25,004 bases of DNA, taken from IMG/VR virus record IMGVR_UViG_3300032329_000232, positions 1 to 25,004 of that record, one strand, 5' to 3'. The number at the start of each line of letters is the position of its first letter. Position 1 is the first letter of the stretch. The notes under the pieces are model-generated. The model made no database searches and was not told where the DNA came from. It saw only the letters and a list, made by a program, of their open reading frames with translations. Shown in pieces: positions 6,746 through 17,903 of the stretch. Both the position numbers and the translations under genes were made by a program. Source of the DNA: a virus (lineage: Duplodnaviria > Caudoviricetes).

Positions 6746-7060
6746 TTGAGTAAAGCCCCCAAATATCCAAAAACAATTGGCTCGGAGCCTTGTGCTACAA
6801 CTGACCCTGAGATATGGTTTCCGGAACGCTCCAATCAATACTTAAAGGTCATGGCAATTGCTAAAAGTCTTTGTCAGACCTGTCCGATAATGTATGAATG
6901 CGCCGAATATGCAATTCACACAGATGTCGAAGGTGTATGGGGCGGAACAAACGAGAAGGAACGCAGAGCGATTCAACAAGCAAAAAAGATTGAAGTCTTT
7001 CGATTCGTAAAGATGACATCTCAGATGCTTGACCAAATGGCGGCATCAAGCCGAAACTGA
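6746..7060 (+). CDS. whiB: WhiB-family Fe-S transcription factor
   Basis: Four Cys (C...DPEIWFP...CQTCP...C) and the GVWGG motif. Confidence 0.93.
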   Translation: MSKAPKYPKTIGSEPCATTDPEIWFPERSNQYLKVMAIAKSLCQTCPIMYECAEYAIHTDVEGVWGGTNEKERRAIQQAKKIEVFRFVKMTSQMLDQMAASSRN

Positions 7061-7734: not shown

Positions 7735-9006
7735 ATGGCTAAACCTGATTTAACAGAGTTAGGCACCTCCGGCTTACGCCGTTCGGGTGGCTTTGTCCAT
7801 GAGGAATTTCTTAATCAACTTCGCGGCCGCAGGGGCTTTCTTGTCTATCGAGAGATGGCAGACAATGACCCGGTTATTGGCTCAATCCTTTATGCAATTG
7901 AAAAAGTAATCCTTCGTCTCGAATGGCGCGTTGACCCACTGGACGATTCACCCGAAGCAGAAGAAATTAGAAACTTTGTTGATGAGTGCATGGAAGACAT
8001 GTCTGATTCATGGGACCAAACTCTCGCCTCAATTCTTTCTATGCTGGTCTATGGTTTCTCTTTCCACGAAATCGTTTACAAAATACGTAAGGGCGAATCA
8101 AAAGACCCTAAGTTTAATTCAAAGCATAATGATGGAAAAGTTGGATGGCGTAAGTTTGCTATTCGTTCTCAAGAATCTTTGAATAACTGGATGATGGACC
8201 CTGAAGGCGGAATTCAAGGTTATCGTCAGATTGACCCAGCAGGCGGCGGCTTCCGTGAAATTCCTATTGATAAAGGTTTGCTATTCCGTACTAACGTGAA
8301 TAAGAATAACCCTGAAGGACGCTCATTACTTCGTAACTGTTTCCGTCCTTGGTACTACAAGCGCCGCATTGAAGAAATCGAAGCAATTGGTATCGAGCGC
8401 GACCTAGCGGGATTACCTGTTGCAAAAGTTCCACCTGAGTATTTATCTTCAGGCGCAACAGCCGCTCAACAATCTGTCTTGGCTGAAATTACAACTATTG
8501 TTCAAAACATTAAGCGAAATGAACAAGAGGGCGTTATCTTCCCAATGATGTATGACGAAAACGGAAAAGAAATGTTCTCACTTGAACTTCTTTCATCCGG
8601 CGGCTCACGTCAATTTGATACAGATAAGGTAATTGCTCGCTACGACCAGCGTATTTCAATGTCCGTTCTATCAGACTTTATTCTTTTGGGCCACGAAAAA
8701 GTTGGTTCATTTGCCCTTGGTTCACAAAAGATGGACCTATGGACAATGAGCGTTGAGGCTATTGCTAAGTCAATTGCTGAGGTTATGAATCAATATGCAA
8801 TTCCACGACTTCTCAAGTTAAACGGAATGAATACAGAACTTGCTCCATTCTTAACGTATGGTGAAGTTTCTTCAGTTGACTTGAATGAACTCAGCAACTA
8901 TGTACAGAAACTAATTGGTGCAGGTGTAATAACTCCTGATGCAGATTTAGAGGCTTACCTTCGTGAACAGGCGTCGTTGCCTCCAGCGGAGAACTTGGTG
9001 GACTAA
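7735..9006 (+). CDS. portal protein (DUF935 / Mu gp29-like)
   Basis: YREM...DP.I, YGFSFHEIVY, NPEGRSLLR....PWYYK, IERD..GLP, GSFALG; first gene of the head module. Confidence 0.9.
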   Translation: MAKPDLTELGTSGLRRSGGFVHEEFLNQLRGRRGFLVYREMADNDPVIGSILYAIEKVILRLEWRVDPLDDSPEAEEIRNFVDECMEDMSDSWDQTLASILSMLVYGFSFHEIVYKIRKGESKDPKFNSKHNDGKVGWRKFAIRSQESLNNWMMDPEGGIQGYRQIDPAGGGFREIPIDKGLLFRTNVNKNNPEGRSLLRNCFRPWYYKRRIEEIEAIGIERDLAGLPVAKVPPEYLSSGATAAQQSVLAEITTIVQNIKRNEQEGVIFPMMYDENGKEMFSLELLSSGGSRQFDTDKVIARYDQRISMSVLSDFILLGHEKVGSFALGSQKMDLWTMSVEAIAKSIAEVMNQYAIPRLLKLNGMNTELAPFLTYGEVSSVDLNELSNYVQKLIGAGVITPDADLEAYLREQASLPPAENLVD

Positions 9007-9927
9007 ATGCCATTTGTATTTAAAGCAAATGACAATCCGCAAGATGGCGCTCAACCTCCGTTAACTCCTGACGAAAAAGAAGTTGTTCAGATAATTAACA
9101 GTGCCGCCGCTGGAGTAAGTGATGCCTCAGTGAGCAGTGCAGTCCAAGCGGCTATTAGTACAGGCAACATTGAACGTGTTGTTGATACTTTCCCATGGGA
9201 AGCAACTGCGTTTACATTAAGTCAAACAGTATCGGCTTTCAAACGAGCAATAAAAGGCGATATTGGAAAAGGTTTTCCTAAAACTGGGTTCGTAGGGCGA
9301 TTTGATTACACAGACCCGCGCTCAACTGAATACGCTTTAAAACAGTCGGCAAAATTAGTTACAAATATGACTGGGCAAATGAAAGATAGAGTTAGAGAAG
9401 TCGTAGGACGCGCATTTACTGAAAACATTCCTGTTTACGATACTGCTAGAGAATTGCGTTCTGTTATTAATTTGACTAAGCGGCAAGAATTAACTTTAGG
9501 TAAATTCAATGACCTCAATCGCGCCCGTCTGATGGATGAGGGTTTATCCGGACGTAAGTTAGAAACCAAATTAAGCGAACTAACTGACCGCCAATATAAA
9601 AAAATGATTTCTCAGCGAAGCAAAGTAATTGCCCGAAATGAAATCCTTGAGGCAGAGAGCGCTGGACGAAGTTTAGGATTTGAACAAAGCGTTGAGCAAG
9701 GTTGGGCAAGCCCCGTTTCAATGAAGCGATGGAGTACCTCAACAGATGAGCGGACCTGCACTATTTGTATGCCTATGAATGGGATGAGCGTTCAATGGAA
9801 TCAGTATTTTCCCAATGGTGTTTTTGACCCACCCGCTCACATTATGTGCCGTTGCTCAATTTCGTTATTAGAACCGGATTCACCTTTAGCGCAAAATCAG
9901 ATGCCAACAGGCTTACTCAGAGAATAA
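9007..9927 (+). CDS. MuF / SPP1 gp7-like head morphogenesis protein
   Basis: RSKVIARNE, KRW....DERTC.IC, PPAHIMCRCS; directly after the portal; no C-terminal toxin extension. Confidence 0.9.
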   Translation: MPFVFKANDNPQDGAQPPLTPDEKEVVQIINSAAAGVSDASVSSAVQAAISTGNIERVVDTFPWEATAFTLSQTVSAFKRAIKGDIGKGFPKTGFVGRFDYTDPRSTEYALKQSAKLVTNMTGQMKDRVREVVGRAFTENIPVYDTARELRSVINLTKRQELTLGKFNDLNRARLMDEGLSGRKLETKLSELTDRQYKKMISQRSKVIARNEILEAESAGRSLGFEQSVEQGWASPVSMKRWSTSTDERTCTICMPMNGMSVQWNQYFPNGVFDPPAHIMCRCSISLLEPDSPLAQNQMPTGLLRE

Positions 9928-9945: not shown

Positions 9946-11424
9946 ATGCCATATTCAATTAAAACCGACGCCGCCGACTGCAAAGGCTATGCCGTTGTTG
10001 ATGAAAATGGAAAAACGGTTGCCTGCCACACAAACCGTAAAGATGCCTTAAATAATCAAAGAGCGCTCTACGCAAATGTGCCTGATGCAAAACGCACCAA
10101 AAAAGAAGACCCAGCGGCAACGAGCAGTGGTCCGACAGTAAGTGATGTTCATGTGGATTACGGCATGGGCAGAGTTCGTATTAAGCGCCCTACTTTTTCT
10201 AAAAACATAGATGTACTTATTGCTCAACACTACAAACTGCATAATCAGACAAACGAGCCATCCGAAGCGCAACTCTATGTCCACCATAACATTTTAGATG
10301 AAGTACAGAAAGCCGGAATGGATTGTTACTGCTCATGCGGTAACTGGAGCCAACCTCTCGTAATTGAAAACGTAACCACAGATTTGAAAACTTTACAAAA
10401 AAGTGAAAACCCATCTTTAGTACCAGTCAAGCAAATTATTCAAACTGGCATTGATAATGGATACAAGTTCGCCGATGTTTTACAGATGCTTGATATTGGT
10501 GGATACATGATGGTCGTCCGACCAAAAGAAATAATTCAAACACCCTCTGACGCACCCGCCGTCGCAGATAACCTAGGTAAATCTATTCTTACAAAGATTA
10601 TGAACTTACTGGATAAGGTGAGCGAGCCGTCACTCGCTGGGAGCGTTGCTGAGGGTGGGACAGCAACTATTAAGGCTGATACACCTAACAGTTTTGTTCC
10701 CCCTAAAGCGGTGCAAGAAGAAGCAAAGCGAGCGCTTCAATGGATTAAAGACGGACATGCTGGAGATAACTTCACAGATGTAGGCCGCGCTCGCGCTTCA
10801 CAGTTAGCAAATGGCGAAGGCGTATCCCGAGACACAATTGCACGAATGAAATCTTTCCTTGCACGTCACTCAGTTGACTCTCAAGGTCAGGGTTACAGTC
10901 CCGGCGAAAAAGGATATCCGTCTCCGGGTCGAGTCTCTTATGCCGCATGGGGTGGAGACGCCGCAAAGTCTTGGACAGAAAAGATTTTTAATCAATACGA
11001 TTTAGCGAAGTCTTATGGGCAGATTGAATCAGTTTACAAAGCCGACGAAAAACGATTTACTCTTGGCCCTTGGTATATCCCAAATCAACAAGACGCACAT
11101 GGCGAATGGACCGACACTTCAGAACTTCAAAACGCTTTATGGAATTATGTAAAGAGCGGGGACCGTCGTATTCGTCTTCAGCACAATAAAAATGTTGTTG
11201 CGGGCGAATGGCTTGAAACAATGACATGGCCTTACCCGGTCACAGTCCCAATAACAAAAGCCGATGGAAGTATGAGCGAATACACTTATCCAACCGGAAC
11301 GGTTTTTATGGGAGTTCAGTGGGAACCTTGGGCGTGGGAATTAGTCAAAAAGGGTAAGTTAACAGGGTATTCTATTGGTGGGAAAGCGGAGAGACTGTTA
11401 GTAGATTTGCCGGAGGAAAATTAA
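9946..11424 (+). CDS. multidomain polyprotein with C-terminal XkdF-type prohead serine protease
   Basis: From about 11041: DAHGEW, IRLQH, W..VKKGKLTGYSIGG. Extra N-terminal (CKGYAVV..CH..ALYAN) and central (PPKAV..ARA.QLA..RM.SFLARH..AWGG) domains. Confidence 0.85.
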   Translation: MPYSIKTDAADCKGYAVVDENGKTVACHTNRKDALNNQRALYANVPDAKRTKKEDPAATSSGPTVSDVHVDYGMGRVRIKRPTFSKNIDVLIAQHYKLHNQTNEPSEAQLYVHHNILDEVQKAGMDCYCSCGNWSQPLVIENVTTDLKTLQKSENPSLVPVKQIIQTGIDNGYKFADVLQMLDIGGYMMVVRPKEIIQTPSDAPAVADNLGKSILTKIMNLLDKVSEPSLAGSVAEGGTATIKADTPNSFVPPKAVQEEAKRALQWIKDGHAGDNFTDVGRARASQLANGEGVSRDTIARMKSFLARHSVDSQGQGYSPGEKGYPSPGRVSYAAWGGDAAKSWTEKIFNQYDLAKSYGQIESVYKADEKRFTLGPWYIPNQQDAHGEWTDTSELQNALWNYVKSGDRRIRLQHNKNVVAGEWLETMTWPYPVTVPITKADGSMSEYTYPTGTVFMGVQWEPWAWELVKKGKLTGYSIGGKAERLLVDLPEEN

Positions 11425-11706
11425 ATGTCAGATAATCCAGTGCGCATAAATGATTATTTTGCCGGACCAGTTACAAAAGAATCTTCTTTCAAGGTTGGGG
11501 ATATGGTTTCTTGGTCTTCTTCAGGTGGGCAAGCAGAAGGAAAAATTACACGCGTTATTCGCGAGGGCAAATTAAACATTCCTAATTCTTCTTTCACAAT
11601 TACTGGCACCCCAGATGACCCTGCCGCAATGATTCGCGTTTATCGTAATGAAAAACCAACCGATACCTTGGTTGGACATAAAACTTCTTCTTTAAAAAAA
11701 AAGTAA
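11425..11706 (+). CDS. Tudor/SH3-like protein (DUF2945 / Hva1-TUDOR-like)
   Basis: FKVGDMVSWSSSGGQAEGKITRV...VGHK.SSL; ends in the slippery run TTTAAAAAAAAAG TAA. Confidence 0.75.
   Translation: MSDNPVRINDYFAGPVTKESSFKVGDMVSWSSSGGQAEGKITRVIREGKLNIPNSSFTITGTPDDPAAMIRVYRNEKPTDTLVGHKTSSLKKK
11691..11703 (+). other. candidate -1 frameshift or slippage site T TTA AAA AAA AAG
   Basis: A_AAA_AAG heptamer (11697-11703) in the correct phase just before the stop; the -1 frame reads VTSLQKYNPNHDGSGRFSSGGGG into ORF 11772. Confidence 0.65.
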
Positions 11707-12227
11707 CTAGCCTCCAAAAATATAATCCCAATCACGATGGAAGCGGACGCTTCTCATCAGGCGGTGGGGGCATGGGCGCCGGAGTTGCCTCATCAATCCT
11801 AGAGCGCGTTAAAGCCAATGGTGGCCTATCGGTCAATATGGTCAATGGCTCAGAACCTACTAGCGGGTATATGGTCGCTAAAGGAACTGAATATGGAAAA
11901 ACCGTGAGCGCAGATGATTTCTATGACCCACAAAAGGGACCTAAGATTCTTGCTGACTATATGAAGCAAAATAAAGCGGACCTAGGGACTGGAAAGAACT
12001 ACCTAGGTTTATGGCATAATACCGAGGATGGAAAAGTGTATCTGGATGTATCGCAAAACATTTTGAGTAAGACCGAGGCAATATCAGCGGGACAGTCCCG
12101 CAACCAAATTTCTATTTGGGATGTAGCAAACTTTGCAGAAGTACAAACTGGAGGTACAGGTGTCACAAAAAAAGAAGTTGGAAGTCGTGGAAATCCCGGC
12201 GAACATTTCAACAATGACGGACGCTGA
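11703..12227 (+). CDS. tagged cargo 1: putative enzyme (possibly SAM-lyase-like); reading frame extends upstream of ATG 11772
   Basis: Tag at 11718-11771; body has GYMVA, YLGLWH...GKVYLDVS...A...G...NQISIWD. Confidence 0.75.
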   Translation, partial: VTSLQKYNPNHDGSGRFSSGGGGMGAGVASSILERVKANGGLSVNMVNGSEPTSGYMVAKGTEYGKTVSADDFYDPQKGPKILADYMKQNKADLGTGKNYLGLWHNTEDGKVYLDVSQNILSKTEAISAGQSRNQISIWDVANFAEVQTGGTGVTKKEVGSRGNPGEHFNNDGR

Positions 12228-12279
12228 AATAGATGCGTTCGCTAAAAGTATCTGGGACGGTCTCGAAAAACCGAAGTAA
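12160..12279 (+). CDS. hidden overlapping 39-aa peptide
   Basis: GGAGGT at 12150-12155, GTG at 12160; MSQKKKLEVVEIPANISTMTDAEIDAFAKSIWDGLEKPK*. Confidence 0.6.
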   Translation: MSQKKKLEVVEIPANISTMTDAEIDAFAKSIWDGLEKPK

Positions 12280-13258
12280 TCTCGCTAAGTACAACCCGAA
12301 TCACGACGCCAATGGTCGCTTTGCGTCAGGCGGGGGCTCTCTCGCGGGCGGGGGCGCGGGCGGGGGTGTTCAACCCGCTGACCCTAAGAATGGTTATGTG
12401 ACTGCCGATGAAGCAACATTAACTGAGGGAACTTTTAATGAGGAAACTCAAGCCGATGAATTAGCGGCTACTTATGAAAACAAATACAACGTTGATAAAA
12501 ATGGCAATCCAATTGGCACAACAAAAGCAGAAATAGATGCTCTCGACAGTTATTCTCGCAATGGATACAAAGACATTAATGCTGAGTTGCGCGGACAAAA
12601 TGTAAAGCAAGAACTTGATGTAGCGGAAGCCACACAAATTATTGAAAATGACGAAAGTATGTATCTTCAAGCAATCGACCAATGGTCAGAACAAAGCGAT
12701 TCTGGTAAAAGTATGGGCGATATGAGTGAAGCGGATTTGAAAGATGCGATGTATTTATATGCCGCAAACCATGGCAAAGAATTGCTTGATAGAATAAACA
12801 CGGGTAATACCCCGAAGGCACTTGCAATCAAAGAACAGGTTGCTCATTTAGATGGTCTCATTGCTACGGCCCCTGTTGCTTTTGGTGATAAACCCCTGTA
12901 TCGTGTTTTTGACAATAAAGTATTAGCGGATTTAAAACCGGGTGACGTAGTGACGGATAAAGGTTTTCTTTCGACAACAAGAACAAACATAATCCACGAA
13001 GATAATTCTTCAGCCCGCACATGGCTAAGTGCAATTGACAGGACTCCAGATACAGGCGGAATCATTCTTCCTAACAAAAGTAAGAATGGTAAAGGAATTG
13101 CGGTAGATGCTTTTAGAACCGCAGTGGGTGAGAGCAATCCTGTTTTAGACGATGAACGGGAAGTCTTGCTTCCTCGTAGCACTCCTTTACTCTTTCTTGG
13201 ATATACAAACATGGGCGTTGAAGATAGAGCCCCAGTATTTCAAAGGATGGACGGATGA
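12233..13258 (+). CDS. tagged cargo 2: VIP2/ExoS-type ADP-ribosyltransferase
   Basis: Tag at 12287; Y....YKDINAELR, LYRV, DKGFLSTT, DEREVLLPR (R-STT-ExE). The start codon is uncertain. Confidence 0.88.
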   Translation: MRSLKVSGTVSKNRSNLAKYNPNHDANGRFASGGGSLAGGGAGGGVQPADPKNGYVTADEATLTEGTFNEETQADELAATYENKYNVDKNGNPIGTTKAEIDALDSYSRNGYKDINAELRGQNVKQELDVAEATQIIENDESMYLQAIDQWSEQSDSGKSMGDMSEADLKDAMYLYAANHGKELLDRINTGNTPKALAIKEQVAHLDGLIATAPVAFGDKPLYRVFDNKVLADLKPGDVVTDKGFLSTTRTNIIHEDNSSARTWLSAIDRTPDTGGIILPNKSKNGKGIAVDAFRTAVGESNPVLDDEREVLLPRSTPLLFLGYTNMGVEDRAPVFQRMDG

Positions 13259-14031
13259 GTAAATTTAAAACTATGCCCGGCGACCTTGAGATTAATCGGC
13301 TGGGAACTATTATTCAAAAATACAATCCCAACCACGGAGCAGATGGTCGTTTTGCTTCCGGTGGAGCGGGCGGCGGGGCAGGTAATACTCCTGTAAACGA
13401 GGGAGATATTCATTTAAATCACTTTGAAAAGAAAGTGGATAAAGCCTATGGGACCGGAGAGGAAGCCTTCTCTATTGCTCATACAGGCGACCAATCAACC
13501 GCTTCTCTAGGTGAGTATCTTGCAAGAGGTCATACCGTCAATGACAATTTGAGAAATTCAGCAAGTATGGGTGAAGCCGGATATATTGATTTTGGCGATG
13601 GAAAGTCTTATGCAGATGGAGGAACGGTAAAAGGTTTAGACCACGCGATTGACATTGCCCCTCCTATCCCAAATACACTTGTATGGCGCACAACAAGCGC
13701 CGACGCAATTAGGGGTCTCAAAAAAGGTGGTGTTTATATGGATAAGGGATTTACTTCCACGACAGCCGCAGATATAACTCACCCCGAGAATGGTAAACTT
13801 TTGCTAACTCTTGCAACAGTATCTAGCGGTAAAAAATCCATTATGGAAATTAATACCGGAAAAGGAAAGGGGATTTACATGCCTAAGATGTTCCCCGGAC
13901 AACCTATTGCAGATTTTGAAAAAGAATTTTTGATGCCCCGTAATACCAAGATGAAATATCTTGGCCCTGATTACAGACCTTCATCCGGTGGCAACTGGCT
14001 GGAAATACATAGATTTAAGGTGGTGGATTAA
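13255..14031 (+). CDS. tagged cargo 3: VIP2-type ADP-ribosyltransferase
   Basis: Tag at 13318; VNDNLR, VWRT, DKGFTSTT, FEKEFLMPRNTK. Confidence 0.85.
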   Translation: MSKFKTMPGDLEINRLGTIIQKYNPNHGADGRFASGGAGGGAGNTPVNEGDIHLNHFEKKVDKAYGTGEEAFSIAHTGDQSTASLGEYLARGHTVNDNLRNSASMGEAGYIDFGDGKSYADGGTVKGLDHAIDIAPPIPNTLVWRTTSADAIRGLKKGGVYMDKGFTSTTAADITHPENGKLLLTLATVSSGKKSIMEINTGKGKGIYMPKMFPGQPIADFEKEFLMPRNTKMKYLGPDYRPSSGGNWLEIHRFKVVD

Positions 14032-14960
14032 TGGACCCTCGCGAAAGATTTACTATGAAGCCGGGTGACTTTACTGTTGTCACCGAGCCCGTTGAAAAAT
14101 ATAACCCTAATCACGATGCGCGTGGTCGTTTTGGCTCAGGTGGAGCAGGTGGAGGCGCGGGCGCAATGGTTGCTCCTAGCACTAATCCCCGTAAAGGTAT
14201 GGGTGATATTCCTTTATCTCAGGACACAGTTGCAGAAATGCAAGGCGGTTCAGCCTCTGAGCATATTGTTAAAGATGCAAACGGCAATTATATGTTCACT
14301 CCAGAGCGCCAAGCGCTACACGATAAAATTATTAAAGAATCAGTTGATGGTGTTCCAACTTCCGCCGACCCAACTTTTACAGTTATGGGTGGAGGGCCAG
14401 CCGCTGGCAAGTCTTCACTTATCCGCGATGGCGGAGTAAAAATTGCGCCCAACTCGGTTGAGGTAAATGCTGACCTATGTAAAGAAAAGTTGCCAGAATG
14501 GCAAACTGCTGGAAGTAGCAGAGCGCAATTTACCCATGAAGAATCTTCATATCTTGCAAAGCGCACACAGGCGGCGGCATTTGAAAGACAACAAAACGTT
14601 TTGCTTGATGGAACCGGAGATACTTCGCCCGCTTCTATGAATAAAAAAATTGATGGCGCTCGCAATGCTGGTTACAAAGTAGAAGCACATTATGTAACTT
14701 TGCCAACAGACCTAGCAATTAAAAATGCTAGAGCCCGCGGTGAAAAGACTGGACGATTTGTTCCTGATGAGGTTGTTCGCGCAACCCACGTTGGTGTATC
14801 TCAAACCTTTCCGGCAATCGCCCATAAATTTGATAGCGTGAAGTTATACGACACTTCATCTCAAGGTAAGCCTCGCTTGATTCTTTCAGGCGTAAAAGGG
14901 GCAATTAATGTTATTGACCCAAAGGGGTACAACGACTTTCTAGCGAAAGGCAATGAATAA
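14031..14960 (+). CDS. tagged cargo 4: zeta-toxin-family P-loop kinase
   Basis: Tag at 14097; GGGPAAGKSS Walker A, VNAD..K..LPE, HEESS, LLDGT, R....GRFVP. Confidence 0.88.
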   Translation: MDPRERFTMKPGDFTVVTEPVEKYNPNHDARGRFGSGGAGGGAGAMVAPSTNPRKGMGDIPLSQDTVAEMQGGSASEHIVKDANGNYMFTPERQALHDKIIKESVDGVPTSADPTFTVMGGGPAAGKSSLIRDGGVKIAPNSVEVNADLCKEKLPEWQTAGSSRAQFTHEESSYLAKRTQAAAFERQQNVLLDGTGDTSPASMNKKIDGARNAGYKVEAHYVTLPTDLAIKNARARGEKTGRFVPDEVVRATHVGVSQTFPAIAHKFDSVKLYDTSSQGKPRLILSGVKGAINVIDPKGYNDFLAKGNE

Positions 14961-15154
14961 TGGCAAGCACTAAACCACGCGTAGAACGCATGTACCTTGA
15001 AATACTTTTAGGCATTAGTCAAAACAAATCACTTTTGCAACCTCTAAATGCTAAAGAGGTGGCACAATGGTCTCTTATAGAACAGCAAGTTAAAGACATT
15101 CGCGATAAGGGCGGAGAGTTCGAAATCCCTAACGAGATTCCGAGCGCGGACTAA
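14960..15154 (+). CDS. small protein coupled to the zeta toxin (candidate antitoxin)
   Basis: 64 aa, TAATG overlap with the zeta stop, acidic C-terminus. Confidence 0.7.
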   Translation: MASTKPRVERMYLEILLGISQNKSLLQPLNAKEVAQWSLIEQQVKDIRDKGGEFEIPNEIPSAD

Positions 15155-15163
15155 GGGGTTAAA

Positions 15164-15685
15164 ATGGCGCAAGACCAACAGTGGTTCTTTGTACAAAATG
15201 CAGAAATGGGTATGGACCCAGAAGACAGCGAGACCGCTCCTCCAGATTTGATTACTAGCCTTCGTACTTTATTGGGCAACACCGTCAGTGTTTATTTCCG
15301 CGCCCACGGATATCATTGGAATGTTAAAGGCACAAACTTTGCCGCCTACCATGAGTTCTTTCAAGAAATCTACGAAGATATTTACGCTTCGATTGATGAC
15401 ACCGCAGAATGGCTTCGCAAGTTAGATGTTGATGCTGATTACCAACTAAGCGATTTCATTAACAATCGCGATATTCAAGATACGCCTGTTAAACCATGGA
15501 ATGCTATTCAAATGGTTAAGGATTTATACGATGCCATTGAAGCACTTGATGAATGCACAGAGCGTTGCCTAGAACTAGCAACAACGGCAGATGAGCAAGG
15601 TCTTATCAACTTCCTTGGTGGTCGTATCGACATGCTCGAGAAGTGGGAATGGCAACTCAAGGCCACATTTAGCGAGACTTTATAA
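15164..15685 (+). CDS. dps: Dps-family mini-ferritin
   Basis: AHGYHWNVKG.NF...HEFFQEIYE.....IDD.AE.LR ferroxidase signature; EK..WQL. Confidence 0.92.
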   Translation: MAQDQQWFFVQNAEMGMDPEDSETAPPDLITSLRTLLGNTVSVYFRAHGYHWNVKGTNFAAYHEFFQEIYEDIYASIDDTAEWLRKLDVDADYQLSDFINNRDIQDTPVKPWNAIQMVKDLYDAIEALDECTERCLELATTADEQGLINFLGGRIDMLEKWEWQLKATFSETL

Positions 15686-16107
15686 TGGCTATTGCTCTTT
15701 ACGAATATGTAGTTTCAGTTGTACAAAAATATAATCCTAACCACGGAGCAGGCGGACGTTTTGCTTCCGGTGGCGCGGGCGCGGGCGCAAGCGCTCCACT
15801 TCGCACCGATGGTGCCGCGGCCTTACACAGAAACCTTGCACCTAAATTAGAAGCAATTAATAACAAAATTGATGCCCTCCCTAAAGAACCAAAAATTGCA
15901 GGGGATATCGCGCAAGCAAAAGTTGGTCTAGCCTCAGCGGCAAAATCTCCAACTCCAAAAGGAAGCGCACAGGGAATTATGAACGCCCATCATGCTTTAG
16001 ATAGCGCCGCAAATAAAGTTGTTGGAAAACAAACACCGTTAGCGTTTCAAATTAAAGATATACGGCAAGATGCCAAATTCCTTGGCGAAGCCTTGATGAG
16101 ACCATAG
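15685..16107 (+). CDS. tagged cargo 5: small Ala-rich helical protein of unknown function
   Basis: Tag VVQK-YNPNHGAGGRFASGG at 15727; the body is not recognised. Confidence 0.8.
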   Translation: MAIALYEYVVSVVQKYNPNHGAGGRFASGGAGAGASAPLRTDGAAALHRNLAPKLEAINNKIDALPKEPKIAGDIAQAKVGLASAAKSPTPKGSAQGIMNAHHALDSAANKVVGKQTPLAFQIKDIRQDAKFLGEALMRP

Positions 16108-16892: not shown

Positions 16893-17027
16893 GGGTTTCA
16901 CCCCCAAGTGCATTTCATGTGTTTCAAGCCTAAGAAACACTTACCCGCGTGATAGCCTTTTACTACCGATTTACAAGGTTGGGTTATATTATTTACTCAA
17001 ATGAATAATGCCCAGTATGGAGGAAAT

Positions 17028-17903
17028 ATGGCGAAGGCAACAAAAATGGTACGCCTTGCTATTGATGAAACAAGCGGCGTGGACCATCCGGCACACCTTT
17101 CCGAAGGTTGGCTCGTAATGAAATCCGCAAATGCTGAAGAAATCGAAGCAGTCATTGACTCAATAACCGAAACAACAATAACTAAGGAGGACTCAGTGTC
17201 CGATGAGAACACAGTTGTAACTGAGGACGCAGTAGTTGCAGAAGCAACTCCAACTGAGTCTCCAGCAGAAGACCAAGATGCAATAATCGCAGGACTTGAA
17301 GAAGAACTTGCAAAAGCAAAAGCCGCTAAGGCTATGCCTGAAGGTTCAGCCGCCGATGAAAAAGATGAAGAACAAATGGATGGCGAATCTGATGCCGCTT
17401 ATGCAAAGCGCATGAGAGACAAAAAAATGCAGGAAGAAAAGAAGCCAGTGGCAATGAAAAAGTCATTGGAATCTGTTGAGAAGGCATTCGCAGTTGAGAA
17501 GGCTCGCGCCGACGAAGCAGTTGCACTTCTTCAGAAAGAACGTGATGAGCGAGCAGACGCCGACTCAATCACAAAAGCAAAGAATTGGAACAATCTTCCT
17601 TTGGAAGCAGAGAAGGTCGGTCCAGCACTTCGTCGTTTGTCACTAATTGACGAAGACCTAGCAAAAAGCATTGAAGGCATTCTAAGTGCAGTCAATGAGC
17701 AAGCAAAAACATCAAACCTATTTGCTGAAATTGGAAAGTCTGTCGATTCATCCGCAGTGGATGCTTACGACCGTCTGACTGCACTAGCAAAGGCGGCAGT
17801 TGAATCAGGCGTAGCACCTTCATTTGAAGTTGCAATGGCTGACGCCGCACTAGCAAACACAGACCTTTACAAGCAATACCTCACCGAGAAGGGTGCTAAA
17901 TAA
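17028..17903 (+). CDS. capsid scaffolding protein with an N-terminal protease-like segment
   Basis: GGAGG RBS before ATG 17028; LAIDETSGVDHPA; acidic/coiled-coil body; LFAEIGKS; upstream of cement and capsid genes. Confidence 0.8.
   Translation: MAKATKMVRLAIDETSGVDHPAHLSEGWLVMKSANAEEIEAVIDSITETTITKEDSVSDENTVVTEDAVVAEATPTESPAEDQDAIIAGLEEELAKAKAAKAMPEGSAADEKDEEQMDGESDAAYAKRMRDKKMQEEKKPVAMKKSLESVEKAFAVEKARADEAVALLQKERDERADADSITKAKNWNNLPLEAEKVGPALRRLSLIDEDLAKSIEGILSAVNEQAKTSNLFAEIGKSVDSSAVDAYDRLTALAKAAVESGVAPSFEVAMADAALANTDLYKQYLTEKGAK

Follow-up and report, generated by a model that had tools for sequence, protein, structure and literature searches.

The window, that is, the whole 25,004-nt (25-kb) stretch of viral DNA analyzed here (41% complete), contains a head module in which the portal gene (from position 7735) is followed by MuF (9007), an XkdF-type protease (9946), Hva1-TUDOR (11425), the cargo genes, a gene at 17001 that probably encodes the scaffold, and the gene for the major capsid protein (18319) (Table 1). 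MuF is a separate gene with no fused toxin domain and does not encode a MuF toxin, and no family match was found for the scaffold gene in the domain search. On visual inspection, the gene at 6746 resembles WhiB, a likeness that would point to a host among the actinobacteria.

Table 1. Features of the head module and cargo array
Feature	Coordinates	Strand	Basis or remarks
MuF gene (306 aa)	9007-9927		PF04233 only
XkdF-type (S78) head maturation protease, presumed cutter	9946..11424	+	PF14550, E 2e-13
Five K/YNPNH..GRF tags (slash, putative cleavage site), starting at 11721, 12290, 13321, 14100, and 15730; putative capsid-targeting sequence located behind the cleavage site	11718..15762	+	sequence
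Micro-ORF of 21 aa, +1 frame, located where cargo 1 ends; likely partner of that cargo	12214..12279	+	homologs
ART1, tagged cargo with C-terminal VIP2-like (R-S-E) ADP-ribosyltransferase (ART) domain; presumed target of the peptide at 13261	12233..13258	+	PF03496, E 9e-08
ART2, tagged cargo with VIP2/C3-like ART fold	13255..14031	+	PF03496, 23.2 bits
ART2 leader, M1-K22, ending at a putative hydrophobic-x-K cleavage site ahead of the YNPNH tag	13255..13320	+	sequence
Peptide motif 1 (ART2 gene, residues 3-13), predicted to inhibit ART1	13261..13293	+	sequence pattern
Zeta-toxin-like P-loop kinase, cargo	14031..14960	+	PF06414, E 1e-26
Leader of the zeta-kinase gene, M1-K23	14031..14099	+	sequence
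Peptide motif 2 (zeta gene, residues 6-16), predicted to inhibit ART2	14046..14078	+	pattern and complex model
64-aa stand-alone gene after zeta; likely zeta partner	14960..15154	+	position and relatives
Probable scaffold protein	17001..17903	+	identity by position; rich in hydrophobic-x-K sites

In each of the five tagged genes, the tag is followed by a Gly-rich linker. We assembled a set of junctions from 186 loci and the window, comprising 358 tagged junctions, or 228 once identical ones were removed, and in 226 of these 228 the residue two positions before the junction lysine is hydrophobic. HK97-type proteases cut after lysine. The hydrophobic-x-K pattern, which was chosen after seeing the data, accounts for 10 of the 28 lysines in the scaffold and 6 of 37 in the protease; the corresponding values for the major capsid protein and the portal are only 1 of 17 and 1 of 21, respectively. 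A shared tag combined with a maturation-protease site pattern that recurs in the scaffold and protease is what protease-processed capsid cargo of the T4 internal-protein type would display, and cleavage after the junction lysine is predicted.

Both ARTs can be assigned to the VIP2/C3-like R-S-E class by their motifs and, for ART2, by its fold, with NAD-dependent activity being predicted. The R, STS/STT, and ExE motifs of this class are invariant in the alignments and present in both window proteins: ART1 retains intact LYRVF, FLSTT, and EREV motifs, and the catalytic residues of ART2 are R145, S168-T169-T170, and E222/E224. The PF03496 score of ART2 lies just below the cut-off of 23.4 bits, and the two ARTs share 30% identity across 129 residues. 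When modeled alone, ART2 adopts a confident ART fold (pLDDT 91), for which the best Foldseek matches are Plx2a, iota Ia, C3, and VIP2 (E about 1e-9 to 1e-10), with TM scores of 0.6-0.68 against Plx2a, iota Ia, CDTa, and VIP2. A single-protein search with ART1 recovered no viral relatives, and one with the ART of Gordonia phage ScarletRaider recovered none either. No hydrolase gene was detected among the open reading frames of the cargo array or by domain search.

Motif linkage to upstream ART genes

The ART2 gene begins MSKFKTMPGDLEI, with its start overlapping the stop codon of ART1, and the zeta-toxin gene begins MDPRERFTMKPGDFTV, with its start overlapping the stop codon of ART2. The sequence-only reading had proposed that the leaders of these two genes, each of which directly follows an ART gene, share a (K/R)F-x3-PGD motif. 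Indeed, when both strands of the window were searched, [KR]F-x3-PGD matched only at 13261 and 14046, with 0.03 matches expected and none of 100 shuffled windows yielding two. The leaders of cargos 1, 2, and 5 (tags at 11721, 12290, and 15730) lack the motif, and those starting at 12233 and 15685 score below 0 with a position-specific scoring matrix (PSSM), on which peptide motif 1, from a leader included in the training set, scores 21 bits. Across related loci, the proposed motif required redefinition: the [RK]F and D-hydrophobic-x-hydrophobic elements are conserved, but the strict PGD, present in just 6 of 116 ART-following leaders, is a lineage-level feature and was dropped as a defining trait. 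The wider conserved motif, [RK][FY]-x-(W/T/Y)-x-x-(G/D/E)-D-hydrophobic-x-hydrophobic, spans 11-12 residues and starts with Arg in 68 of 107 cases and with Lys in 34.

The motif goes with the ART genes, not with the protein to which it is attached, across distant phages and five gene architectures. A relaxed pattern, [RK][FY].{4,6}[DEG][ILVFM].[ILVF], which was written after inspecting part of the data, was found in 99 of 116 leaders behind a C-terminal ART and in 1 of 112 behind other genes (228 junctions). When the same junctions were split by the cargo of the leader itself, the motif was present in 22 of 98 leaders where that cargo is an ART vs. 78 of 130 otherwise. Two ART clusters supply 72 of the 116 ART junctions; counted per 50%-identity ART cluster, the motif is present in 14 of 22, with several of the misses looking degenerate by eye. 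Leader similarity correlates with the similarity of the upstream ARTs (Spearman 0.76) far better than with that of the leaders' own cargos (0.24; 1901 pairs). Thus, the earlier contention that the motif tracks the upstream enzyme holds well beyond the window. For instance, judging from the two loci closest to the window, members of the ART1 family carry a motif-like leader when an ART precedes them (locus L001) and an unrelated leader otherwise (the window and locus L002).

This linkage extends to loci that played no part in defining the motif. With a PSSM trained solely on the first junction set, we scored 79 new loci that had been retrieved via a different ART pattern. At a threshold of 8 bits, a downstream open reading frame was matched at 23 of 55 distinct independent ART ends, 4 of these being near-duplicates, vs. 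3 of 200 other long frames; one of the three control matches represents the same peptide read via an overlapping frame, and some of the controls are not real genes. A downstream partner that tracks the toxin family is characteristic of toxin-immunity pairs of the polymorphic-toxin type, but the association is not universal: the remaining 32 ART ends scored below 8 bits, and many phage ARTs have no adjacent peptide.

In a search that started from the motif, two DNA patterns for [RK]F-x-W-x-PGD retrieved 84 and 33 stretches. Among the 91 distinct viral matches with at least 400 nt upstream, 28 have an ART end within 350 nt upstream on the same strand, including 2 in the contig of an already known locus (L215), and 4 further viral matches have an ART directly downstream. 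Bacterial genomes were scanned by DNA pattern only, because the diverse ART alignments contain no stretch conserved enough for a locus search; none of 79 examined matches had an ART upstream (flanks were taken from 80 of the 120 matches listed, out of about 140 in all), a result that neither supports nor refutes the linkage because a 15-base pattern applied to 596 billion bases probably matches mostly by chance. A phage collection yielded 44 matches, and of the 8 records examined, 4 contain a clear motif and 4 (LadyBird, Marky, PhiXhv-12, and Manatee Spring phage) do not.

As anticipated from the window alone, the peptide occurs downstream of homologous phage ARTs in both fused and stand-alone forms. 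Stand-alone motif genes span 21-79 aa and include Araceli gp10 of Streptomyces phage Araceli, a 47-aa ORF of Bacillus phage S4-3, and genes of 21 aa (L260) and 25 aa (L202) with neither cargo nor tag; in GMA6 gp14, the motif resides in the leader. Elsewhere, it is found in cis at the C-terminus of the ART itself, as in ScarletRaider gp25, or of a MuF-ART fusion (L324), where it lies behind two hydrophobic-x-K sites. Some arrangements are more complex. In a tandem-ART polyprotein (L215), a 53-aa ORF that is nested in the +1 frame downstream of an internal ART domain and has a ribosome-binding-like site of its own encodes the motif; in L339, the motif gene precedes the ART; in L240, the motif is located, by eye, on the N-terminus of a probable prohead protease; and in a jumbo phage (L363), a 75-aa protein consists of three motif repeats and is encoded some 4 kb away from a stretch that contains at least 10 ART genes. 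None of the eight jumbo-phage ART genes scored has an adjacent peptide, 8 of 10 internal ART domains are not followed by the motif in any frame, and the T4-like ART arrays in L102, L248, and L265 lack such leaders.

Every upstream gene family, MuF included, has its own leader family, and the MuF-following leader is as conserved as the ART-following one; MuF is not a toxin, yet a conserved leader follows it. The dN/dS values of the leaders (0.07-0.18) indicate only that synonymous sites vary and are circular as a measure of constraint because the groups were picked by amino acid pattern. Constraint imposed by overlap with the ART reading frame was considered as well and rejected, given that the leaders overlap the stop codon by only a few bases.

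The same linkage could arise if cargo modules recombine at the tag, so that the stop-to-tag piece travels with the upstream gene and the leader supplies only a start codon and a protease site. The family-specific leaders, including that behind MuF, and the contigs of related strains, whose sequences display joints at the tag-linker repeats, fit this scenario, and recombination at the tag alone would account for the correlation of 0.76. Nevertheless, such hitchhiking appears very improbable: the motif is retained without a tag or cargo behind it; it occurs in another frame inside a polyprotein, ahead of an ART, and, repeated three times, at a distance from ART genes; it is kept across ARTs that share as little as about 30% identity or less; and the structural model described below docks the peptide in the active site. 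The variety of stand-alone, in-cis, nested, and triple-repeat forms is poorly explained by linkage alone.

Predicted complex of ART2 with the zeta leader

The proposal that the leader binds the upstream ART was examined by modeling one pair, with ART2 residues 49-258 (63-row alignment) and residues 1-30 encoded by the zeta gene (16-row alignment) as the input. The leader was placed in the NAD cleft with a complex score of 0.78, compared with 0.01 for the best of three controls, in agreement with the sequence-only reading; of the solved pairs, 116 of 157 reach the mark, as do 2 of 215 mismatched ones, but these counts are only roughly valid for a model built from our own alignments. At least 78% of the contacts agree among the runs, and the pLDDT of the partner is 71-76. 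In the model, peptide residue F7 contacts T146, S168-T170 (STT), and the catalytic E224 of ART2, M9 contacts residues 146-148, and residues 14-17 pair with strand G159-M162. Thus, the conserved motif positions are predicted to be the best-defined contacts and to be located in the NAD cleft: the conserved Phe would pack on the STT motif and the catalytic Glu, the next conserved hydrophobic residue (M here, W in many phages) on the strand bearing the catalytic Arg, and the (P)GD would form a turn after which the last four peptide residues add a strand to the ART sheet.

Because solved ART-immunity complexes, such as those of Tre1 (chains 6dre/6drh) and Lmo0066 (chain 8za7), are present in the PDB, the complex model may lean on the memory of a plugged ART cleft. 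The peptide profile matched no PDB sequence apart from one chance-level hit (E 1.9), and searches of Pfam and PHROG with 16 and 15 peptides or leaders assigned no family, the one weak hit being phrog_22878 (E 0.014). For a natural in-cis case (L068), whose tail lacks alignment depth, modeling with AlphaFold2 did not place the motif (pLDDT about 50).

Binding in itself would also be expected of a docking tether, whereby the peptide binds the upstream ART and chains cargos (MuF to cargo to cargo) for co-packaging, with inhibition being incidental. The predicted strand addition is a typical docking mode, the fusions in the window would connect ART1, ART2, and zeta, and the equal conservation of the MuF-following leader is in line with this possibility. 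We nonetheless regard a tether as improbable because every cargo carries its own tag, the 21-25-aa stand-alone forms have nothing to tether, and the predicted site is the catalytic cleft. Somewhat less probable still is a substrate decoy, in which the Arg of the RF element soaks up ADP-ribose, or an activator, in which the added strand completes the ART fold for activity. ExE-type ARTs are described as modifying arginine in the available text of two sources (PMC8120803, PMC11699363), and Arg is the commonest first residue; however, Lys takes its place in about one-third of the motifs, including that of the ART2 leader, catalysis would be blocked by the Phe at its predicted position in the NAD site, and ART2 folds confidently on its own.

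Relation to known toxin-immunity and head-packaged ART systems

Several known systems resemble the window in part. Small ORFs, proposed to confer immunity, lie behind MuF toxins in 89.4% of 191 cases (Jamet 2017, PMC5576092), and as in the window, an enzymatic toxin domain of the head module, often an ART, is followed by such an ORF; no family or motif is given for the ART partner in the available part of that study. The window differs in having a short tag instead of MuF, arrays of cargos, and a partner that consists of an 11-12-residue motif and may double as the leader of the cargo that follows. In the Bxa-Bsi-BAH system of a Bacteroides stercoris prophage, the phage head ART Bxa is toxic to bacteria and is blocked by Bsi, a demonstrated nonenzymatic inhibitor modeled in the active site (Alexei 2024, PMC11699363, as far as its accessible text goes). 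Bsi thus sets a precedent for nonenzymatic immunity to a phage head ART, but, compared by description only, it is a protein in its own right, at least 92 residues long and with K89 and E92 being key, encoded beside a hydrolase. Similarly, the short N-terminal extension of Tri1 obstructs the catalytic site of Tre1, an R-S-E ART (PMC8120803, available text), but this extension is fused to a DraG-like hydrolase and belongs to a type VI secretion effector-immunity pair.

A head-packaged ART is also known from phage T4: the ART Alt is packed in the head, undergoes processing by the prohead protease, and is injected (PMC9503650, PMC5512222, PMC8120803, in the parts available). Head-packaged ARTs have been surveyed (PMC9503650, PMC5512222), as have immunity families (PMC3482391); the accessible portions of these three sources contain no such peptide, and the supplementary tables of PMC3482391 and PMC5576092 could contain one. 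Overall, full-text searches of the main texts of openly accessible papers listed no description of the motif or of leader-fused immunity. Freshwater phages, some of them predicted to infect Actinobacteria, encode VIP2-like ARTs of the same enzyme family as those in the window, for which a eukaryotic (actin) target was proposed under the 'Trojan horse' label (Kavagutti 2019, PMC6802176, available text). A dedicated inhibitor made in the bacterial cell would point instead to bacterial targets.

In T4 internal proteins, the N-terminal piece that is removed is the capsid-targeting signal. In the window, by comparison, a conserved tag would remain after the putative cut, and what is removed would be a peptide predicted to inhibit another protein.

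Proposed immunity, arming, and the cargo chain

Taken together, we consider it likely, at a probability of about 0.78, that the motif behind ART genes is a cognate immunity peptide, predicted to sit in the NAD cleft of the upstream ART and to keep the enzyme inactive in the producing cell. By the same token, the peptides probably represent a new family of minimal linear-motif ART immunity peptides, with inhibition being predicted. ART1 would be blocked by the ART2 leader and ART2 by the zeta leader, and the overlapping stop and start codons suggest translational coupling, which would keep enzyme and peptide at a ratio of about 1:1.

How the enzymes would be released from inhibition is less certain, and we place the following scheme only slightly above even odds. 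The head protease would cut after hydrophobic-x-K, the freed peptide would be lost from the head by diffusion or would separate upon unfolding at ejection, and the active ART would be delivered to the next host, with arginine residues in bacterial proteins as its expected substrates. Because a cut at the lysine would separate the peptide from the cargo downstream but leave it bound to the ART, arming would require this further loss of the peptide.

The daisy chain envisaged by the sequence-only reading appears to extend to other cargos in the array. The 64-aa gene after zeta belongs to no Pfam or PHROG family, and its relatives are located behind six of the seven zeta homologs whose end was covered; in L232 and L240, a relative serves as the fused leader of the cargo that comes next, and apart from these two fusions, seen in the fetched loci, a protein search revealed no longer homolog. 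The micro-ORF at the end of cargo 1 is retained in 52 of 56 distinct cargo-1 homologs and is also nested within polyprotein linkers; in the window, the visible ART1 leader overlaps it in a third frame. Along with the family-specific leaders, these observations suggest that each enzyme-like cargo has a partner directly behind it, such that zeta would be blocked by the free 64-aa protein and cargo 1 by the free 21-aa peptide.

The broadest form of this proposal, to which we assign even chances, is that an unannotated family of linear-motif inhibitors of VIP2-like ARTs, 11-12 residues long, is widespread in phages, and that in this lineage the whole array is wired as a chain in which the antidote is the disposable propeptide of the next gene or an overprinted micro-ORF, with a single protease step at head maturation stripping the antidotes and arming all cargos. 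Repeat forms would then act in trans on many ARTs and could blunt the ARTs of competing phages.

If the immunity interpretation is correct, it offers an answer to the question of how phages make and package promiscuous ARTs without poisoning the producing cell, with an antidote that gene callers mostly miss because it is 21-60 aa long, encoded in a nested frame, or hidden in a leader. If the partner is, as a rule, the piece behind the stop codon, partners can also be predicted for several further cargo families annotated without a function. As a naturally occurring minimal peptide that fits the NAD cleft of R-S-E ARTs, it would represent a new inhibitor scaffold and should permit the cloning of otherwise toxic phage ARTs, for which cultured phages exist (Araceli, GMA6, and ScarletRaider), and the existence of a dedicated inhibitor would make the question of what these ARTs target testable.

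Short proteins behind cargo genes

Among loci L027-L186, fetched from other phages, the leaders (residues preceding the inferred cleavage at the tag lysine) that follow genes other than those for VIP2-like ADP-ribosyltransferases (ARTs) fall into at least six more families of 20-65 aa, each associated with a single upstream cargo family, and MuF genes in these loci are likewise followed by a short conserved leader. The leaders behind non-ART genes are candidate partners of uncharacterised enzymes. An overprinted micro-ORF of 19-49 aa is conserved behind the cargo-1 domain in 52 of 56 homologues (e.g., in L045, L093, and L108), frequently nested within a polyprotein linker. PHROG matches of cargo 1 itself were confined to families of unknown function.

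Other ART loci

In loci L236, L243, L247, and L266, ARTs are followed by a conserved acidic helical ORF of 66-68 aa that lacks the predicted inhibitor motif and possibly represents a second ART immunity family. The 244-kb T4-like phage of L363 carries at least 10 ART genes near that for a protein with three tandem motif repeats, a candidate trans-acting inhibitor. In the large phages of L102, L248, and L265, ART genes form tandem arrays, with T4-like N-terminal sequences.

Features and their coordinates
Feature	Location	Strand
75-aa protein, three tandem motif repeats	L363:1329-1556	minus
Candidate programmed -1 frameshift site	window 11691-11720
Cargo-1 micro-ORF, window copy	window 12214-12279
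Dps/ferritin-like gene	window 15164-15685

Tags and their reading frames

The cargo-1 tag of the window, the first of the array, lacks its own start codon and lies in the -1 frame relative to the TUDOR gene, after a run of nine A residues (slippery sequence A AAA AAG); in the relatives L001 and L002, it is fused in frame. No indel was found here in contigs from two other runs, and the region is a candidate for programmed -1 frameshifting. The Dps/ferritin-like gene lies within the cargo array but is untagged.

In the Gordonia phages GMA6 (L190) and ScarletRaider (L191), another tag, K-x-VRD-x-x-YWG-x-P-x-GTPI, is common to proteins of the head region and is located behind the leader, indicating that this arrangement also occurs with a tag of unrelated sequence.
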